Positions 44,629 to 52,226 of a stretch of DNA of 64,000 bases are shown piece after piece. Position 1 is the first letter of the stretch, and every line of letters starts with the position of its first letter. The position numbers and the translations under genes were made by a program. The DNA comes from Escherichia coli (GTDB taxonomy: Bacteria; Pseudomonadota; Gammaproteobacteria; Enterobacterales; Enterobacteriaceae), in the NCBI RefSeq assembly GCF_003018235.1, contig NZ_CP027437.1; one strand, 5' to 3'. The notes below the pieces were generated by a model. It saw nothing but the letters and a program-made list of their open reading frames with translations. It was not told the DNA's origin and searched no databases.

Positions 44629-47220
44629 ATGCATCAATCTGGTTCTGTTTCTCTTTGTCGTTCCGCAATATCTGTTCTGGTGGCTACAGCGTTATATTCA
44701 CCCATAGCATTGGCATCAACAGTTGAGTATGGTGAGACAGTTGATGGTGTTGTCCTGGAAAAAGATATCCAGCTGGTTTATGGGACCGCCAATAATACGA
44801 AAATCAATCCTGGCGGAGAACAGCATATTAAAGAATTTGGTATAAGTAGTAATACTGAAATTAACGGCGGGTATCAGTACATTGAAATGAATGGCACCGC
44901 AGAATACTCAGTATTAAATGATGGTTATCAAATTGTTCAAATGGGTGGTGCGGCAAACCAGACTACCCTCAATAATGGTGTGCTACAGGTTTATGGCGCA
45001 GCGAATGATACTACCATTAAAGGCGGGCGCTTAATTATTGAAAAAGATGGGATTACCGTCTTTGCCGCTATCGAAAAGGGAGGATTACTGGAGGTTAAAG
45101 AGGGGGGGTTAGCATTTGCGGTAGATCAGAAAGCCGGCGGTGCTATTAAAACAACCACGCGGGCCATGGAGGTATTCGGAACAAACCGTCTCGGTCAGTT
45201 CGATATCAAGGATGGTATTGCTAATAATATGTTGTTGGAAAACGGCGGAAGTTTGCGAGTTGAAGAAAATGACTTCGCTTATAATACCACTGTGGATAAT
45301 GGCGGCTTACTGGAGGTTATGGATGGCGGGACTGCAACTGGCGTTGATAAAAAAGCAGGCGGAAAATTAATTGTCTCAACGAATGCGCTGGAAGTGAGTG
45401 GTACAAACAGTAAAGGCCAATTTAGTATAAAAGATGGTGTGTCCAAAAATTATGAACTGGATGATGGTTCCGGGCTCATTGTTATGGAGGACACGCAGGC
45501 CATTGACACTATCCTTGATGAGCATGCCACTATGCAATCGCTGGGAAAGGATACTGGTACGAGAGTGCAGGCAAATGCGGTATATGATCTCGGTCGATCA
45601 GATCAGAATGGAAGTATCACGTATTCCTCTAAAGCCATCTCTGAAAATATGGTTATCAACAATGGCCGCGCTAATGTCTGGGCTGGCACAATGGTTAACG
45701 TTTCAGTCAGAGGGAATGATGGCATTCTTGAGGTCATGAAGCCGCAAATAAATTATGCACCCGCTATGTTGGTGGGTAAGGTAGTGGTTTCTGAGGGCGC
45801 TTCTTTTAGAACGCATGGTGCCGTGGATACCAGCAAAGCGGATGTTTCGCTCGAAAATAGCGCATGGACCATCATTGCCGATATCACTACGACGAACCAA
45901 AACACTCGCCTCAACTTAGCCAACCTTGCGATGTCTGGCGCAAATGTGATTATGATGGCTGAGCCAGTGACTCGTTCATCTGTGACGGCAAGTGCGGAAA
46001 ATTTCACTACGTTGACCACCAATACCCTATCGGGAAACGGCAATTTTTATATGCGTACCGATATGGCTAATCATCAGAGCGATCAGCTCAACGTCACCGG
46101 TCAGGCAACAGGTGATTTCAAAATATTCGTTACGGACACCGGTGCCAGCCCGGCAGCAGGTGATAGCCTTACACTGGTAACAACGGGCGGCGGTGATGCT
46201 GCATTTACGTTGGGCAATGCCGGAGGCGTTGTTGATATCGGTACGTATGAATATACCTTGCTGGATAATGGCAACCATAGCTGGAGCCTCGCAGAGAATC
46301 GCGCGCAAATTACCCCTTCAACCACTGATGTGCTGAATATGGCGGCAGCACAACCGCTGGTATTTGATGCAGAACTGGACACCGTGCGTGAGCGTATTGG
46401 TAGCGTAAAAGGCGTTAATTACGATACGGCGATGTGGAGTTCGGCAATTAACACCCGCAACAACGTGACCACTGATGCGGGAGCTGGCTTTGAGCAAACA
46501 TTGACCGGGCTGACGCTCGGTATCGATAGCCGTTTCTCCCGTGAAGAAAGCAGCACAATTCGCGGCTTGTTCTTTGGTTACTCTCATTCTGATATTGGTT
46601 TTGATCGCGGCGGCAAAGGTAATATCGATAGCTATACCCTGGGGGCTTATGCTGGTTGGGAGCATCAGAACGGTGCCTATGTTGATGGGGTGGTGAAAGT
46701 TGACCGTTTTGCCAACACTATCCATGGCAAGATGAGTAATGGGGCAACAGCGTTTGGCGATTACAGTAGTAACGGCGCGGGTGCTCATGTCGAGAGCGGG
46801 TTCCGTTGGGTTGACGGATTGTGGAGTGTTAGACCCTATCTGGCCTTTACCGGCTTTACCACAGATGGTCAGGACTACACGTTATCAAACGGCATGCGCG
46901 CGGATGTGGGAAATACCCGCATATTACGCGCTGAAGCGGGAACAGCGGTAAGCTATCACATGGACCTGCAAAACGGTACGACGCTGGAACCCTGGCTGAA
47001 AGCCGCCGTACGTCAGGAATACGCCGATTCTAACCAGGTGAAAGTTAATGACGATGGCAAATTTAATAATGATGTGGCTGGAACCCGTGGCGTTTATCAG
47101 GCTGGGATAAGGTCATCGTTTACCCCGACGTTAAGCGGTCATTTGTCTGTCAGCTATGGCAATGGCGCAGGGGTAGAATCACCGTGGAATACTCAGGCGG
47201 GTGTGGTCTGGTCGTTCTGA
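44629..47220 (+). CDS. yejO: autotransporter adhesin-like protein YejO, apparently intact
   Basis: 863-aa ORF with signal peptide, repetitive passenger domain (G/N/T-rich repeats) and C-terminal beta-barrel ending in aromatic residue (VVWSF). Confidence 0.8.
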   Translation: MHQSGSVSLCRSAISVLVATALYSPIALASTVEYGETVDGVVLEKDIQLVYGTANNTKINPGGEQHIKEFGISSNTEINGGYQYIEMNGTAEYSVLNDGYQIVQMGGAANQTTLNNGVLQVYGAANDTTIKGGRLIIEKDGITVFAAIEKGGLLEVKEGGLAFAVDQKAGGAIKTTTRAMEVFGTNRLGQFDIKDGIANNMLLENGGSLRVEENDFAYNTTVDNGGLLEVMDGGTATGVDKKAGGKLIVSTNALEVSGTNSKGQFSIKDGVSKNYELDDGSGLIVMEDTQAIDTILDEHATMQSLGKDTGTRVQANAVYDLGRSDQNGSITYSSKAISENMVINNGRANVWAGTMVNVSVRGNDGILEVMKPQINYAPAMLVGKVVVSEGASFRTHGAVDTSKADVSLENSAWTIIADITTTNQNTRLNLANLAMSGANVIMMAEPVTRSSVTASAENFTTLTTNTLSGNGNFYMRTDMANHQSDQLNVTGQATGDFKIFVTDTGASPAAGDSLTLVTTGGGDAAFTLGNAGGVVDIGTYEYTLLDNGNHSWSLAENRAQITPSTTDVLNMAAAQPLVFDAELDTVRERIGSVKGVNYDTAMWSSAINTRNNVTTDAGAGFEQTLTGLTLGIDSRFSREESSTIRGLFFGYSHSDIGFDRGGKGNIDSYTLGAYAGWEHQNGAYVDGVVKVDRFANTIHGKMSNGATAFGDYSSNGAGAHVESGFRWVDGLWSVRPYLAFTGFTTDGQDYTLSNGMRADVGNTRILRAEAGTAVSYHMDLQNGTTLEPWLKAAVRQEYADSNQVKVNDDGKFNNDVAGTRGVYQAGIRSSFTPTLSGHLSVSYGNGAGVESPWNTQAGVVWSF

Positions 47221-47281: not shown

Positions 47282-47313
47282 AAAAAAACCAACCGCAAAG
47301 GTTGGTTTTTTTT
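47282..47313. terminator. rho-independent terminator after yejO
   Basis: A-run, hairpin CCAACC-gcaaa-GGTTGG, then T8, directly after the yejO stop. Confidence 0.75.
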
Positions 47314-47392
47314 GGGATTTTTGCACGAGAGTAGTTTAATTGAGTATGTAACTACATGATTTAAAATAATTTGTCTAATTCAACTTTTAAAC

Positions 47393-47417
47393 CGTATAAC
47401 CAAACGTATAACTAAAA
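47393..47417. repeat. CGTATAAC(TAAA) repeat pair at the yejO-proximal end of the island
   Basis: cCGTATAACcaaaCGTATAACTAAAA; the same motif recurs four times at 57463-57519 near the integrase. Confidence 0.6.
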
Positions 47418-47620
47418 TGATTTGCTGAAAAAGTGTACAATTTAAAGACAGATTTTCCCGGGGGTTATAAAACTGCGAAAATTTCGTAGTTATCCCGATA
47501 CGGGGATCACCATATCGGGATTGGATACCTGGCTTTTTTTCCGGTTAACTCTTAATCATCTGCGTGATCATAATGATGATTCAGCCAGCGCAATTTTGCG
47601 TTATCGGGAATATCAGCAAG

Positions 47621-47902
47621 TTACCGCCGTAACCGCTCCGGCTTCTTCCAGTGGTAGGTAATTTTTTCTTTCTCCCGATACATCTCCACGCGGCGCTTGT
47701 AGGCCAGCATTTCAAGAACGCGGATCCGTATGTCGCGCATATCCACATCATTAAGCTGGATACCATCACGGCGCATCACCTCAGCAACCACACACGCATA
47801 ATTTTCGGCGGTCACGCAGTCCGGCTGCGTAGCCTGTTCGTCAGCCTGCTGGCTGATTCCGGCAACTCGGCGGATTAATCGCAGTAGTTCGGCTTCTGTC
47901 AT
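47621..47902 (-). CDS. hypothetical protein, 93 aa, island-borne
   Basis: ORF from the supplied track, downstream (minus sense) of conserved repeat copy 1; no family recognised. Confidence 0.4.
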   Translation of the reverse strand: MTEAELLRLIRRVAGISQQADEQATQPDCVTAENYACVVAEVMRRDGIQLNDVDMRDIRIRVLEMLAYKRRVEMYREKEKITYHWKKPERLRR

Positions 47903-48063
47903 TGTGCCCCCTCGCGCTGGTTAAGAAAACAAGCTCAGATTTTTTGTAAAGAATCTGTCACGCTAAAAGATGTCGAACAAAAAACAATCACCTTCATCAT
48001 CTTTTTTACATAAAAACAATTAAAAACAATAATTTACATACATGATGATGATGGCGATAAAAT

Positions 48064-48140
48064 CATAAAAATGCGCTTTTTTCCGCGCCGACCCGCCCCG
48101 TGGACAGGCCCACCCCACCAGGAGGACCCGCAAAAAAGGC
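48064..48140. repeat. conserved GC-rich element of about 65 bp, copy 1 (abuts the capsid-gene terminator)
   Basis: TGCGCTTTTTTCCGCGCCGACCCGCCCCGTGGAcaggCCCACCccACCAGGAGGACCCgCAAAAAAG, about 85% identical to 50604-50690 by eye. Confidence 0.6.
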
Positions 48141-48169
48141 GGCATATTTGCCGCCCTGTAAACTGTGTA

Positions 48170-50065
48170 TCAGCCGGAAGCCGTACCGCTCGATTTGACC
48201 ATGCCGCGATAGTCCAGCGCGGCCACACCGGCATCAATACGAACCTTCCAGGCGACACCGTCAACGATGAAGCCTTCCTGCTGTTCAAGGTAAGGCTCGT
48301 CATTACCATCAAGATAAGCCACCTCGATTGTGTCCGTTCCCTGTGCTGAAAGCATGTACCATTGATTCACACTAACATCATCCAGACGAGGATCGACAAT
48401 AATATCCAGTAGCTTGTGATACGGGTTAAATATGCCGCTGTTTTTATCGGCCCCGAAAGGTGCGGTTGAATTAATCATTTGCAACGCGCGATCTTCCAGT
48501 GCTGCCGGAACTAACAGGAATTTAGGTGCAATGTTCAGCACCTCGCCGTTTTTATCTTTCTGTATGCGCATAGCGTGACGTGCTGCACTAAGCCCCGGCG
48601 TCGTCATGCCAAGATCGATAAGGTTGTTGTGTTTTTTATCAAACAAGGCCACACCATCAGACAGCTTGCCGTTTCCTGTAAGTACCAGATTAACCAGATT
48701 GCCAACCGTTCTGGCTGCTGCACGCCCCATAGCCATTGGCACGGTAGACAACTGATCAAGGTCATCATTGATTATCGCCTGGCGGGTAATACTGAAAATA
48801 TTCCCGTATGTAGCCAGCGCGATTGGCTCACCGCGATCGCTGGTGGTGATGTATTTATATTCTGCCCCTTCCGGCACTTTGTTTAATGTTGAAAAACCAT
48901 TCAGGCCAACGCGGCGGGCTTCACGGAAGTTTGACAGAGAACCTTTTTTAGTCCACTGGCGGAATGTTTCGCCGCTGTGCTCCCAGCCTGCCAGCACTGA
49001 TTTTTCAGCGCCACCAGCCAGGATGTAAGTAAAATCGCTGCTGCTGTGAGTGAATGCCGCATTAACAATCTGCGAACGCGTGCTGTAGCTGCCTGTGCTT
49101 ATGCCACGATGGGTTAATGATGCCTGTGCCATATCGAAAAGGCTCATCATGGCGTAAGGATTGCCGCGTTCGGCCTGTTCGTGACCAAGACGTGCGTTAA
49201 GCCCCTGACGCATGGCATCGCCGGTTATGTTGCCGTTATCCGTATACGCGTAGTAAAGATTTGCGGGGGTGTTTTTGTTGGTGGGTGTCGATTCCTTGCC
49301 CATAGCCAATAAAAGGCGTTCGCGCGCATCCTCAACGCTACAACCTGCGTCTGCCAGGCAGTTAATAGCCAGGTCGTTATATTTCCCGTTGAACGTGCCA
49401 AACAATTCGCGAATGCCGTTTAGTCGTTCCTGTTCGCCGCTGGCTTTGTTCTGGTTGATCATGTTTTTGATACTTTCCGGCATATTTGAAAAATCTCCGA
49501 TTCGTTTTGATTCAATTCTGGCCATTGCTGTAATCGCGGGTATAACCTCATCTGCGAAGCCGTTAGCCTTACACTCATTGCCATCCATCCAGGTTTCCGC
49601 CTCCATCATGGCGGTGATTTCCTGTTTGCTTTTTCCCGTTCTTCCGGCGTAGGTTTCCGCCATCGTGTCGCCCAGCTTGTCCATCAGGTCAGCAAAGCGG
49701 CGAACGTCGCCCGACACGCCAGAAGTAACACCACGGGGGGCATGTATCATCATCATTGCGTTAGCGGGCATCACGATGTGATCGCCACACATGGCAATAA
49801 ACGAGGCCATAGAAGCCGCTATGCCTTCAATGTGTACGATTTTTTTCGCCGGATGATTTTTCAGGGCGTTATAGATAGCCAGCCCCTGAAAGATGTCGCC
49901 GCCTGGTGAATGGATACGCAAATGGATTTCAGACACGTCACCACACGCGCTTATCTGGTCGGTTAATGTTGACGCCTGTACACCGTAACCGCCTATTTCG
50001 TCATAAATGCGAACGTGAAGGGCGTCGGCTTTTGCCTGTATGCTGTACCAGGATTTCATAGCCAT
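48170..50065 (-). CDS. phage prohead protease (ClpP/S49-like) fused to HK97-fold major capsid protein, 631 aa
   Basis: N-terminal part resembles ClpP-type head maturation proteases (HSPGGDIFQGLAIYNAL ... ASMASFIAMCGD); C-terminal part resembles HK97-family major capsid proteins. Assignment by sequence resemblance from memory. Confidence 0.65.
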   Translation of the reverse strand: MAMKSWYSIQAKADALHVRIYDEIGGYGVQASTLTDQISACGDVSEIHLRIHSPGGDIFQGLAIYNALKNHPAKKIVHIEGIAASMASFIAMCGDHIVMPANAMMMIHAPRGVTSGVSGDVRRFADLMDKLGDTMAETYAGRTGKSKQEITAMMEAETWMDGNECKANGFADEVIPAITAMARIESKRIGDFSNMPESIKNMINQNKASGEQERLNGIRELFGTFNGKYNDLAINCLADAGCSVEDARERLLLAMGKESTPTNKNTPANLYYAYTDNGNITGDAMRQGLNARLGHEQAERGNPYAMMSLFDMAQASLTHRGISTGSYSTRSQIVNAAFTHSSSDFTYILAGGAEKSVLAGWEHSGETFRQWTKKGSLSNFREARRVGLNGFSTLNKVPEGAEYKYITTSDRGEPIALATYGNIFSITRQAIINDDLDQLSTVPMAMGRAAARTVGNLVNLVLTGNGKLSDGVALFDKKHNNLIDLGMTTPGLSAARHAMRIQKDKNGEVLNIAPKFLLVPAALEDRALQMINSTAPFGADKNSGIFNPYHKLLDIIVDPRLDDVSVNQWYMLSAQGTDTIEVAYLDGNDEPYLEQQEGFIVDGVAWKVRIDAGVAALDYRGMVKSSGTASG

Positions 50066-50250
50066 GCCCCTAACGTGTGCCCATACCAGTACTCTACCGC
50101 GCTGCGTGCAATTTGCCCTTTGGTCGGTACTGGCATTCCTGGGTGATTTTCCCTTATGAACTGCTGATAGCGTTCAATCTTCTCCATCGTTCCGGCGTCT
50201 ATGTGCACTGTTGCGCTTTTATCCGGTTTTCTGGTGTTGTTCTCTGGCAT
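50056..50250 (-). CDS. hypothetical small protein (64 aa from the internal ATG with GGAGG RBS), upstream of and overlapping the capsid gene
   Basis: ORF 50056..50283; ACGGAGG sits 8 nt upstream of the ATG at 50250. Confidence 0.4.
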   Translation of the reverse strand: MPENNTRKPDKSATVHIDAGTMEKIERYQQFIRENHPGMPVPTKGQIARSAVEYWYGHTLGAWL

Positions 50251-50444
50251 AAATCCGCCTCCGTTTTGATTAACGGGCATCATTATTGATCGATAAAAGT
50301 AATAGATAAATCATTTTCTACCTAAAAATCAGATTATGATTTTTCTGATTATTTCGAGAAAAGCAAATCATTTGACGCATTATTGCTATTTTGGCAATAT
50401 TAAGTCTCATTCATTCCGGTAGTAGAAGTTCGTTTGTCGTACTA

Positions 50445-50481
50445 AAGCGCCTCCGGTAGCACCATCGGGGGCGCTTTTTTT
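50445..50481 (+). terminator. orphan plus-strand rho-independent terminator inside the island
   Basis: GCGCCTCCGG-tagcaccat-CGGGGGCGC followed by T7; there is no plus-strand ORF upstream of it. Confidence 0.45.
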
Positions 50482-50603
50482 GTGCCTGTTTTTTTTGTAA
50501 ATATTTTCGGGAATGTTCCAGTGGTGAACAAAAAACAACCATAATCGACACTGAAATTTTTATCAGCCAAATATATCAATAAGTTATGTTAGTGGTGATG
50601 GTG

Positions 50604-50690
50604 CCATAAAAATCAAAAAATGCGCCTTTTTCCGCGCCGACCCGCCCCGTGGATGCCCCCACCAACCAGGAGGACCCACAAAAAAGCCGG
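50604..50690. repeat. conserved GC-rich element of about 65 bp, copy 2 (abuts the terminator of the int2/PerC-like unit)
   Basis: TGCGCCTTTTTCCGCGCCGACCCGCCCCGTGGAtgccCCCACCaaCCAGGAGGACCCaCAAAAAAG; the adjacent hairpin differs between the two copies but the block is conserved. Confidence 0.6.
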
Positions 50691-50708
50691 ATTGCTCCGG
50701 CTGTGTGC

Positions 50709-50984
50709 TCACTTCTGCGGGTAGTTGCGCCATACTGCTTTACCAATACCAGCTATCCCCATTTGTTTTTCAGTGCGATTAACTGACCTTTTCAGAGCGC
50801 CTAAATCATCCGGCGGCTCCGGTGGCCTCTGTGCCTTCCTGGAACATTCCTGCCGTCGCATTGCCACCTGTGCGCGTTCCTTGTCTGTCTCCACCAGCAT
50901 CATCACTTCACCCCATCGCGCCGCCGCCCTCCTGTAAAATCCTTTCGCCTCGAGTTCCTCCGCTATACGGTCATGTACCATCAT
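50709..50984 (-). CDS. small regulatory protein, possibly PerC family, 91 aa
   Basis: N-terminal IAEELEAKGFYRRAAARW resembles the PerC/Pch motif as I recall it; overlaps the int2 stop by 4 bp. Family call is tentative. Confidence 0.4.
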   Translation of the reverse strand: MMVHDRIAEELEAKGFYRRAAARWGEVMMLVETDKERAQVAMRRQECSRKAQRPPEPPDDLGALKRSVNRTEKQMGIAGIGKAVWRNYPQK

Positions 50985-51994
50985 TCACCACCTCCCGCAG
51001 ATGGCGATAAGCTGGCTTTGCCTCCAAGTGGATTAAACCTTATCGCCTCTGTCAGAAAATCCGGCGCAAAATGCGCGTAAACCATTGTCTGTTGTATGCT
51101 CGCGTGCCCCAGTATCCTTTGCAGTGTGATTATATTCCCCCCGTTCATCATGAAATGTGTCGCGAATGTGTGCCGTAATACGTGGGTGGCCTGGCCTTTT
51201 GGTAAGTCCGGTTTTACTGACTTGATGACCTCCCTGAACTCCAGATAATCCACATCAAACAACTGTCCCTTTTTACCTCTCGTTACAAGTTCCAGAACGT
51301 CATCAGACACCGGAACAGCTCGCGCCCGTCCGTTCTTCGTCTCCGTAAACATTACCTTGTTACTGACTATATTTTCCCGTCGTAGCGTCGATGACTCCCC
51401 ATAACGCGCCCCCGTCGAAAGACACAAAACAGCCAGCGCGAGACAGTCGCCTTTGGCAATATTCAGTAAATGATTAACCTCATCATCACCAAGAAAACTC
51501 ATAGCCTTGTTTGGTGCTTTCAGCTTGCGTAATCCACTCAAAGGGTTTTCACCGTGATACATACCGCATTCGATTAGCCCCCTGAACATTCCTGATATAA
51601 CCGACAAATCACGGTTAACAGTCAACGGACTAAGGCCGCATCCCAGCTTGTCGGCTCTGTATTCCATGAGCATTGCGCGGGTTATGTTGCAGATTCGTGG
51701 ATCCCCCATTTCACGGATAACCTTCATCATGCGCATAAACGATTGTTCGCCGTATTCCTCCGATCTTCCGATAAACTCCATCCATAAGTTAGCCAGATCA
51801 GATAACAGGCGAATATCTGCGGCGCGTGACTCCCAGGGCTTATTATGACAATGAAGCAGTATGTATTTTTCGTAATCACGGGCTTTTGTCTGCGAGGGAA
51901 AAATCTTTCTTATCCGTCGCCCGTAAGCGCCATTTGGCCTTACGTCAACCAGCCAGCGACCATCCTCACACTTCCTTATCGCCATGCTCCACAC
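50981..51994 (-). CDS. tyrosine site-specific integrase/recombinase, 337 aa (second integrase in the island)
   Basis: C-terminal catalytic region with HVLRHTFATHFMMNGGNIITLQRILGHASIQQTMVYAHF (R..HxxR..Y signature); size is typical of P2-type integrases. Confidence 0.8.
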   Translation of the reverse strand: MWSMAIRKCEDGRWLVDVRPNGAYGRRIRKIFPSQTKARDYEKYILLHCHNKPWESRAADIRLLSDLANLWMEFIGRSEEYGEQSFMRMMKVIREMGDPRICNITRAMLMEYRADKLGCGLSPLTVNRDLSVISGMFRGLIECGMYHGENPLSGLRKLKAPNKAMSFLGDDEVNHLLNIAKGDCLALAVLCLSTGARYGESSTLRRENIVSNKVMFTETKNGRARAVPVSDDVLELVTRGKKGQLFDVDYLEFREVIKSVKPDLPKGQATHVLRHTFATHFMMNGGNIITLQRILGHASIQQTMVYAHFAPDFLTEAIRFNPLGGKASLSPSAGGGE

Positions 51995-52226
51995 CCTTAA
52001 CGTTGATGGTTGTTACCTGTTCCGCTTCGGCTATCTCCCGTTCGGTCAGCGTGGCAAAGTTTGCCGCCGCTGTGGTCATGAATGCGCTTATCAGTTCGGG
52101 ATGTGCTTTCGCGTATCCTTCTCCCGTGTTGCGGTCTATCGTTCTGATTGCCACCTTTAAGGCGTGCTCTGTCATGTCTAATGCGCGATATTTTGGCGCT
52201 GCCTTATCTCTGGTTTTTCTGGTCAT
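51966..52226 (-). CDS. hypothetical small protein, 86 aa
   Basis: ORF between the replication ATPase and int2, overlapping the int2 start; no family recognised. Confidence 0.35.
   Translation of the reverse strand: MTRKTRDKAAPKYRALDMTEHALKVAIRTIDRNTGEGYAKAHPELISAFMTTAAANFATLTEREIAEAEQVTTINVKGVEHGDKEV

Follow-up and report, generated by a model that had tools for sequence, protein, structure and literature searches.

A shortened proL 3′ fragment, read as a damaged attL core, at the yejO-side end of a PICI-type phage satellite in Escherichia coli

Damage to the displaced fragment of a tRNA or tmRNA gene was reportedly described by Williams in 2002/2003. Hudson et al. 2015 (PMC4383910) also treat this damage, and the boundary found at our locus lies exactly at their position. 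A 2023 study of helper-embedded PICIs (PMC10111431) reported deletions of variable length from a particular point within the acceptor stem of tRNA-Pro and other tRNAs, saw them only in PICIs, and suggested that through them the tRNA becomes disabled when the island excises, “like an addiction module.” In its supplementary alignment, CTCT-CGTG is followed by unequal gaps in EcCIED1a, EcCI11368, EcCI11128, and SbCISb277, and the entry for SbCISb277, CTCTCGTG-----ca---aaaatccc, contains a 5-nt-deleted fragment identical to the one analyzed here. Nothing essential differs between this published damage and that in our sequence, which shares with it the variable deletion, its start 3 bp upstream of the discriminator, and the involvement of tRNA-Pro. 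Both the anchored deletion series and its “tRNA hostage” consequence are therefore already published and are not put forward as new.

At the level of the whole element, the closest described relatives are the PICIs located at yejM-luxR, that is, EcCIED1a.1, EcCI11368.1, EcCI11128, and EcCIATCC25922 (PMC6092414) as well as SbCISb277 (PMC10111431), which share with our island the same site, the same arms, the CGTATAACYAAA repeats, and the order integrase, AlpA, replication, packaging. In contrast to these PICIs, our island carries a rare mosaic as its cargo (ClpP/capsid fusion, second integrase, PerC), and the att core listed in the table of PMC6092414 is the arm repeat instead of the tRNA block. 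Heterobivalent att sites of the lambda/P4 type likewise combine an arm-binding integrase and an AlpA-type accessory protein with repeated arm motifs to the left and right of a short core, which overlaps a tRNA 3′ end so that the gene is regenerated; they differ from our locus in that no clear inverted core-type sites are seen here and in that binding to the 12-mers is putative.

The window analyzed is a stretch of 64,000 nt from an E. coli genome (contig NZ_CP027437.1). Its genes run in the order narP, yejO (44629-47220, intact), insert, proL, and yejM, and in its flanks it matches E. coli genomes at 98-99.4% identity. We are highly confident that positions 47323-47331 are the attL core of a PICI-type satellite that integrated into the 3′ end of proL, with strand exchange within the 8-bp block CACGAGAG and with the loss of 5 nt. 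The locus bears the signature used by Islander: a co-oriented 3′ fragment of proL at one end and the intact tRNA gene at the other, an interval that is missing from the uninterrupted site of related genomes and has its junctions at the fragment, and a tyrosine integrase gene (ORF 56190-57449) within the island beside the regenerated tDNA. As a separate observation, the window has yejO as an intact ORF of 863 aa, in contrast to K-12, Nissle, SCU-111, and several further strains that we looked at, where the gene is truncated or a pseudogene.

Both ends of the island can be fixed to the base by comparison with the empty site of K-12. This site, ...GGTTGGTTTTTTCTTGGGATTTTT/GGTCGGCACGAGAGGATTTGAACC..., consists of a terminator hairpin, the flank GGGATTTTT, and the tRNA 3′ end; across the border between flank and tRNA it reads CTTGGGATTTTT/GGTCGGCACGAGAG, so that the flank is followed by GGTCGG. 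In the window, identity to K-12 ends on the left side at 47322 (TTTTT) and restarts on the right side at 57648, which places the 9-mer GCACGAGAG, found on either strand of the whole window only at 47323-47331 and 57656-57664, exactly at both junctions. On the left, the chromosomal flank GGGATTTTT (47314-47322, plus strand; the B arm of attL, which abuts the tRNA 3′ end in K-12) leads into the 9-mer (plus strand), the displaced and damaged proL 3′ fragment identified from the empty site and from relatives, and then into TAGTTTAATTGAG (47332-47344, plus strand), the first island-specific, core-proximal bases of P′, which are conserved in all relatives and absent from K-12. Within the 9-mer, CACGAGAG (47324-47331) is the identity block kept by every relative, and the G at 47323 is the sole remainder of TGGTCGG after the 5-nt deletion. 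On the right, the island sequence finishes with ...GGTGGGCGATT, and K-12 identity starts with TTTGGTCGGCACGAGAGG (57648 onward). Here the intact attR core TTTGGTCGGCACGAGAG (57648-57664, plus strand), 17 bp identical to the empty site, contains the second 9-mer, which falls inside the 3′ end (57650-57664) of the regenerated, intact tRNA-Pro(GGG) gene proL (57650-57726, minus strand; called by ARAGORN). The island-only DNA, absent from the empty site, thus covers 10,316 bp (47332-57647). Most of the 5,426 E. coli genomes have the flanks joined over about 1.07 kb, with position 47322 directly on the tRNA end.

The native terminator hairpin (47282-47312, a terminator-like hit, also present in the K-12 empty site) is chromosomal flank and not island, and in the empty site it lies directly 3′ of proL. 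Integration has parted proL from this hairpin, which now stands at the yejO end, 3′ of yejO. An island-borne terminator-like hairpin (57572-57607, minus strand) occupies the replacement position about 45 nt downstream of the tRNA.

A sequence-only reading of this DNA had proposed that GATTTTTGCACGAGAGTAGTTTAAT (47316-47340) may be a degenerate att repeat resembling GATTTGGTCGGCACGAGAGGATTTGAA (57646-57672) at the tRNA-Pro 3′ end, and both sequences were recovered at these positions when we read the two sites. It had also called for a pairwise alignment. Local alignment of 47300-47360 with 57620-57690 gave a 17-nt match (GCACGAGAGTAGTTTAA / GCACGAGAGGATTTGAA) with a score of 19, a value reached, or a shared word of at least 9 nt found, in 0.75% of 2000 shuffles. 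To the right of the 9-mer the alignment is weak, with agreement at 5 of 8 positions, because beyond the core one side is island-specific and the other is tRNA. By itself this alignment is modest, suggestive evidence; what is decisive for the 9-mer is its position at both junctions and not the score. The second proposed comparison, with the empty site, bears the reading out: K-12 and most E. coli lack the 47316-47340 sequence and instead read GGGATTTTTGGTCGGCACGAGAGGATTTGAA, the tRNA itself. The K-12 empty site also puts the left junction where a scar of tRNA-targeted integration at the distal (yejO) end of the island had been suspected. The three motifs that had been listed as shared differ in kind: the GATTT at 47316-47320 is native chromosomal flank, the GATTT at 57646-57650 combines P-arm sequence of the island with the T that begins the tRNA end, and TTTAA versus TTGAA reflects a resemblance between the island-side (P′) and tRNA-side (B′) flanks of the core and no duplication of DNA.

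Given that the ends of the island also carry longer repeats, one could argue that the 9-mer is a chance match and that the true ends are the 26-nt direct repeats at 47392-47417 and 57494-57519 (repeat family D15). These are the longest direct repeat shared end to end, essentially the same sequence is listed as “att site core” at yejM-luxR in Table S1 of PMC6092414 (Fillol-Salom et al. 2018), and a 9-mer common to two windows of some 65 nt turns up in about 0.75% of shuffles. However, the DNA at 47332-47391 and 57520-57647 lies outside the repeats and is nevertheless missing from the empty site, which refutes the 26-nt repeat as the att site. The repeats are, moreover, part of a set of six exact copies of the 12-mer CGTATAACYAAA, all of them at the island ends and in both orientations, compared with 0.41 copies expected by chance in the pattern scan. 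Two stand in tandem in the P′ arm (CGTATAACCAAA, CGTATAACTAAA; 47393-47416, plus strand; pattern scan and repeat family D15), and four further copies of CGTATAACTAAA lie in the P arm (57463-57518), on the minus strand at 57463-57474 and 57477-57488 and on the plus strand at 57495-57506 and 57507-57518. Such an arrangement is the pattern of arm-type sites, and the 12-mers are probably arm-type binding sites of the integrase. Finally, at least 15 reference PICIs have been remapped to tRNA genes in PMC10111431, whose alignments place the block at CTCTCGTG. We therefore regard the 26-nt repeats as hardly credible island ends, and the boundary mapping corrects their older use as an “att core.”

If the 9-mer at 47323-47331 is the remnant of a longer core, a complete version should exist in relatives. 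A scan for the island-side sequence GAGAGTAGTTTAATTGAG in viral, metagenome, and genome collections yielded 18 real left junctions and one attP-type junction. The latter (L031; metagenome contig ERZ1034969 NODE-11656, 1-900) aligns over 2-744 to the integrase-side arm, at about 80% identity, and over 783-899 to the yejO-side arm, and it reads ...GTAGATT TGGTCGGCACGAGAG TAGTTTAATTGAG, that is, P arm, full tRNA end, and P′ arm, an attP carrying a tDNA fragment in a relative of our island. Either a circle formed by excision or a tandem array could be the source of this junction. Since it holds the full 15-nt tRNA end, a fresh attL should carry that end too. All 18 left junctions are shortened, always directly left of CACGAGAG, leaving GGTCG^, GGTC^, GG^, G^ (the window), nothing, or a deletion that reaches deeper into the T-run. 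From these junctions alone, all 18 being damaged, one might have supposed that no intact attL exists, an idea ruled out by junction-specific searches of 5,426 complete E. coli genomes, 359 of which carry this P′ arm. Among these 359, the intact attL (TGGTCGGCACGAGAG) was found in 11 genomes (about 3%) and deletions of 1, 2, 4, and 5 nt in 33, 95, 148, and 44 genomes, respectively, the last being the type of the window; clonality weighs heavily on these numbers, which are no tally of independent events. The 6-nt deletion is represented by 0 of the 5,426 complete genomes, and deletions of 6 and 10 nt come from viral and metagenome contigs only.

These data bear on the proposal that the 9-mer represents the whole att core in undamaged form, with nothing lost and with an attP that carries only GCACGAGAG. 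While attL and attR do share exactly 9 bp in the window, the chromosome side of a 9-bp core should then show TTTTTGGTCG, which is absent from attL. The full 15-nt tRNA end at the attP-type junction and in 11 attLs, together with six different lengths at this very point in relatives, likewise speaks against the proposal, and we consider it very unlikely. The same full cores, along with scarred empty sites (see below), rule out an attP with a shortened core and a crossover in TTTGGTC. Thus, the 9-mer is a partial copy of the tRNA 3′ end, as had been supposed from the window alone, and its “degenerate” character comes down to the absence of 5 nt (GGTCG/GTCGG) from the full tRNA end.

The deletions of 1, 2, 4, 5, 6, or 10 nt all fit one right-hand boundary, which abuts CACGAGAG and lies 3 bp upstream of the discriminator base (tRNA strand, GTG/CCG-A-CCA). 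As in the damaged fragments described for PICIs, the window lacks 5 nt ending at CGG/CAC, and the lengths vary among relatives. Could this series merely reflect ordinary neutral decay of a fragment without function, or slippage during its replication, the shared boundary being due to chance or ascertainment? Microhomology of G or GG can be drawn for the deletions of 1, 4, and 5 nt, which makes their placement ambiguous, and our search pattern needed an intact GAGAGTAG..., so that deletions extending more than 3 nt rightward were invisible to it. However, the deletions of 2, 6, and 10 nt lack microhomology and lie unambiguously against CAC, the 6-nt stretch is free of substitutions across 30 sequenced junctions, where deletions are the rule, and six deletion sizes would share one boundary with a probability of about 1e-4 under random placement. 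In addition, the same boundary has been published for other tRNAs and for ssrA. Together, these points make neutral decay or slippage improbable.

Further information on the place of exchange came from five of the 5,426 genomes that are free of the island and yet have a proL with attL-type deletions, of 4 nt in four of them and of 2 nt in one. The 4-nt form is exemplified by O111:H11 strain 8D (L043, 1500-1520), which reads CTTGGGATTTTTGG^CACGAGAGGATTTGAACC, and is also found in STEC384, NADC1036, and S6aCHROMc; the 2-nt form is that of P15-385. No island-free site with the 5-nt, window-type deletion was found in the 5,426 genomes. In these scarred genes the nucleotides are missing from the 3′ strand of the acceptor, and PGAP still calls a tRNA-Pro; presumably, they are truncated tRNA genes left behind by satellite excision. 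As the same deletions occur in occupied and in empty sites, damaged alleles can pass between both states. Retention of the deletions in island-free sites places strand exchange within or to the right of CACGAGAG, and with the G/T divergence after GAGAG as the right limit, exchange is confined to the 8-bp block itself. This block forms the junction of acceptor and T stem, which is the “J” sublocation of Islander. We infer the exact cleavage positions of the integrase from identity blocks only, and a search by eye for inverted core-type integrase sites around CACGAGAG revealed nothing convincing.

When, then, does the damage arise? One answer, in line with the “damage upon integration” of the literature, is that the 5-nt loss was inflicted during the integration reaction. 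This would agree with the report in PMC10111431 of damage only in PICIs and not in tRNA-using prophages, with the anchoring of the deletions at the edge of the crossover block, and with the predominance of damaged attLs, put at about 92% of those with an identified junction form (320 of 331 hits of the junction queries, in a set of 359 genomes with the P′ arm). Five of the 11 intact attLs, however, accompany a complete island with an intact integrase gene. Also against damage during integration stands the conservative nature of tyrosine recombination. The island of Nissle, finally, is 100% identical to that of GN02050, but the attL of Nissle has the 2-nt deletion and that of GN02050 is intact. 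The two genomes differ at 34 positions over 15,168 bp, all in the chromosomal flanks and with 0 substitutions in the island, and the single indel is the 2-nt deletion in attL. Taken together, we regard damage inflicted during integration as possible but rather doubtful.

Because identical islands, and likewise one haplotype of flank and P′ arm that occurs with the intact, 4-nt, and 5-nt forms, carry both intact and damaged attLs, these observations argue that damage is not obligatory at integration and that it comes later or is inherited from a scarred attB. Accordingly, the second answer is that the integrase cleaves at the left edge of CACGAGAG after integration and that repair is faulty, or else that a scarred proL allele was inherited; in the latter variant, an earlier island would have excised and left a scarred proL, into which the present island integrated, with the tRNA repaired at attR. 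Besides the Nissle/GN02050 pair, in which the core indel is the sole one in the aligned sequence, and the shared haplotype, this answer can draw on the other six intact attLs, which sit on a 1.4-kb remnant with a truncated integrase, and on the scarred island-free sites, whose existence means that alleles can move between the occupied and empty states. Its weak points are that the integrase-dead remnant is probably one lineage (n = 1) and that empty sites with a scar are seldom seen, in 5 of 5,426 genomes. We give this second answer, in its two variants together, not quite an even chance. A stricter rule, by which every intact attL would be paired with a dead integrase, is ruled out, as only 6 of 11 fit it. 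The more specific proposal that damage accrues after integration, with the integrase cutting at the left edge of CACGAGAG and repair going wrong, is one that we advance tentatively, as a plausible minority view. If true, an intact attL would mark fresh integrations or integrase-dead remnants, the damaged allele would make proL a hostage in that excision leads to a truncated tRNA (compare the five genomes above), and the timing and enzyme dependence of the published PICI damage would be directly testable.

Turning to the island itself, the tyrosine integrase gene (56190-57449, minus strand) lies about 200 bp from the tRNA, and its product combines an N-terminal arm-binding domain with the remainder of the enzyme (Pfam Arm-DNA-bind_3, Phage_int_M, and Phage_integrase). 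According to Pfam, it is followed by an AlpA-family small DNA-binding protein of the regulator/excisionase type (55478-55684, minus strand; Phage_AlpA, E = 4.5e-8), DUF4222 (53825-54121), a RepA-type AAA_25 helicase (52428-53828), PerC (50709-50984), and a fusion of ClpP protease and major capsid protein (48170-50065). Directly downstream of the helicase gene are three iteron-like copies of a 24-nt repeat (CCTCACTTTTACTCCTCACTTTTT; 52238-52429, spacing 83-85 nt; repeat family D3), which look like the iteron replication origin of the satellite. The gene set of a PICI is hence present within 10.3 kb, a length that suits the about 10-15 kb of PICIs, with int, alpA, helicase and putative iteron origin, and a packaging/capsid module, and the annotation of the near-identical island copy in SCU-111 includes no tail or lysis gene. 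On this gene content, the island is classified as a PICI-type phage satellite and as a member of the E. coli PICI group already published for yejM-narP. Only SCU-111, among the 5,426 complete E. coli genomes, has the insert over most of its length (98.8% identity). The same architecture is annotated at the same site in SCU-111, 01_3327, and Nissle, and relatives with other packaging modules occupy this site in 01_3327, Nissle 1917, and O157:H7 NE1092-2.

Several features of the interior deserve mention in their own right. A second tyrosine integrase of 337 aa (50981-51994; Pfam Int_N and Phage_integrase) and PerC together occupy 50709-51994 in mid-island, between the putative origin and the capsid gene; PICIs nested in the Clp-protease gene of another PICI are mentioned in PMC10111431, and the pair may be left over from such a nesting. 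A direct repeat of about 90 nt (48054-48142 and 50603-50690, 84-85% identical) brackets the ClpP/capsid gene and a small ORF, and it could delimit a swapped module or consist of repeated regulatory or terminator elements. The 353-aa ORF at 54412-55473 (GTG start) has no Pfam match, and the equivalent region of SCU-111 contains several small genes (Icd-like, with YlcI/YnfO on the other strand); this ORF may not be a real gene.

These elements can be combined into the following scenario. The attP of the circular island would carry a copy of the tRNA 3′ end (TTTGGTCGGCACGAGAG) identical to attB, and recombination of attP with attB by the tyrosine integrase would restore proL in intact form next to the integrase gene (attR, 57648-57664), displacing the original 3′ end, with its native flank and terminator, by 10.3 kb to the yejO side (attL). 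Strand exchange would take place within the 8-bp CACGAGAG, spanning the junction of acceptor and T stem, with the putative arm-type 12-mers CGTATAACYAAA to either side of the core. In the window, the displaced fragment has lost the 5 nt directly left of CACGAGAG, as one member of the family-wide series of variable length; when and how such a deletion arises is something that we infer. Excision by exchange within CACGAGAG would carry the deletion into proL, yielding an attP of the form ...GATTTGGTCGGCACGAGAGTAGTTT and an attB, GGGATTTTTGCACGAGAGGATTTGAA, that is the truncated proL expected from such an event.

In summary, the scar is real, was correctly interpreted in the sequence-only reading, and is already known in kind, being an ordinary instance within a catalogued PICI group. 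What the present comparison adds are the frequencies of the different forms in 5,426 genomes, five natural island-free genomes with a scarred proL, and an identical island found with an intact and with a damaged attL. These additions bear on when the damage arises and leave the classification unchanged; otherwise, the finding is routine mobile-element annotation. For the strain itself, the only intact proL 3′ end is the one supplied by the satellite, and site-specific loss of the island would probably leave a truncated tRNA-Pro(GGG) gene. This dependence of proL on the satellite bears on the stability of the island and on the view, already in print, of PICIs as elements that resemble addiction modules.
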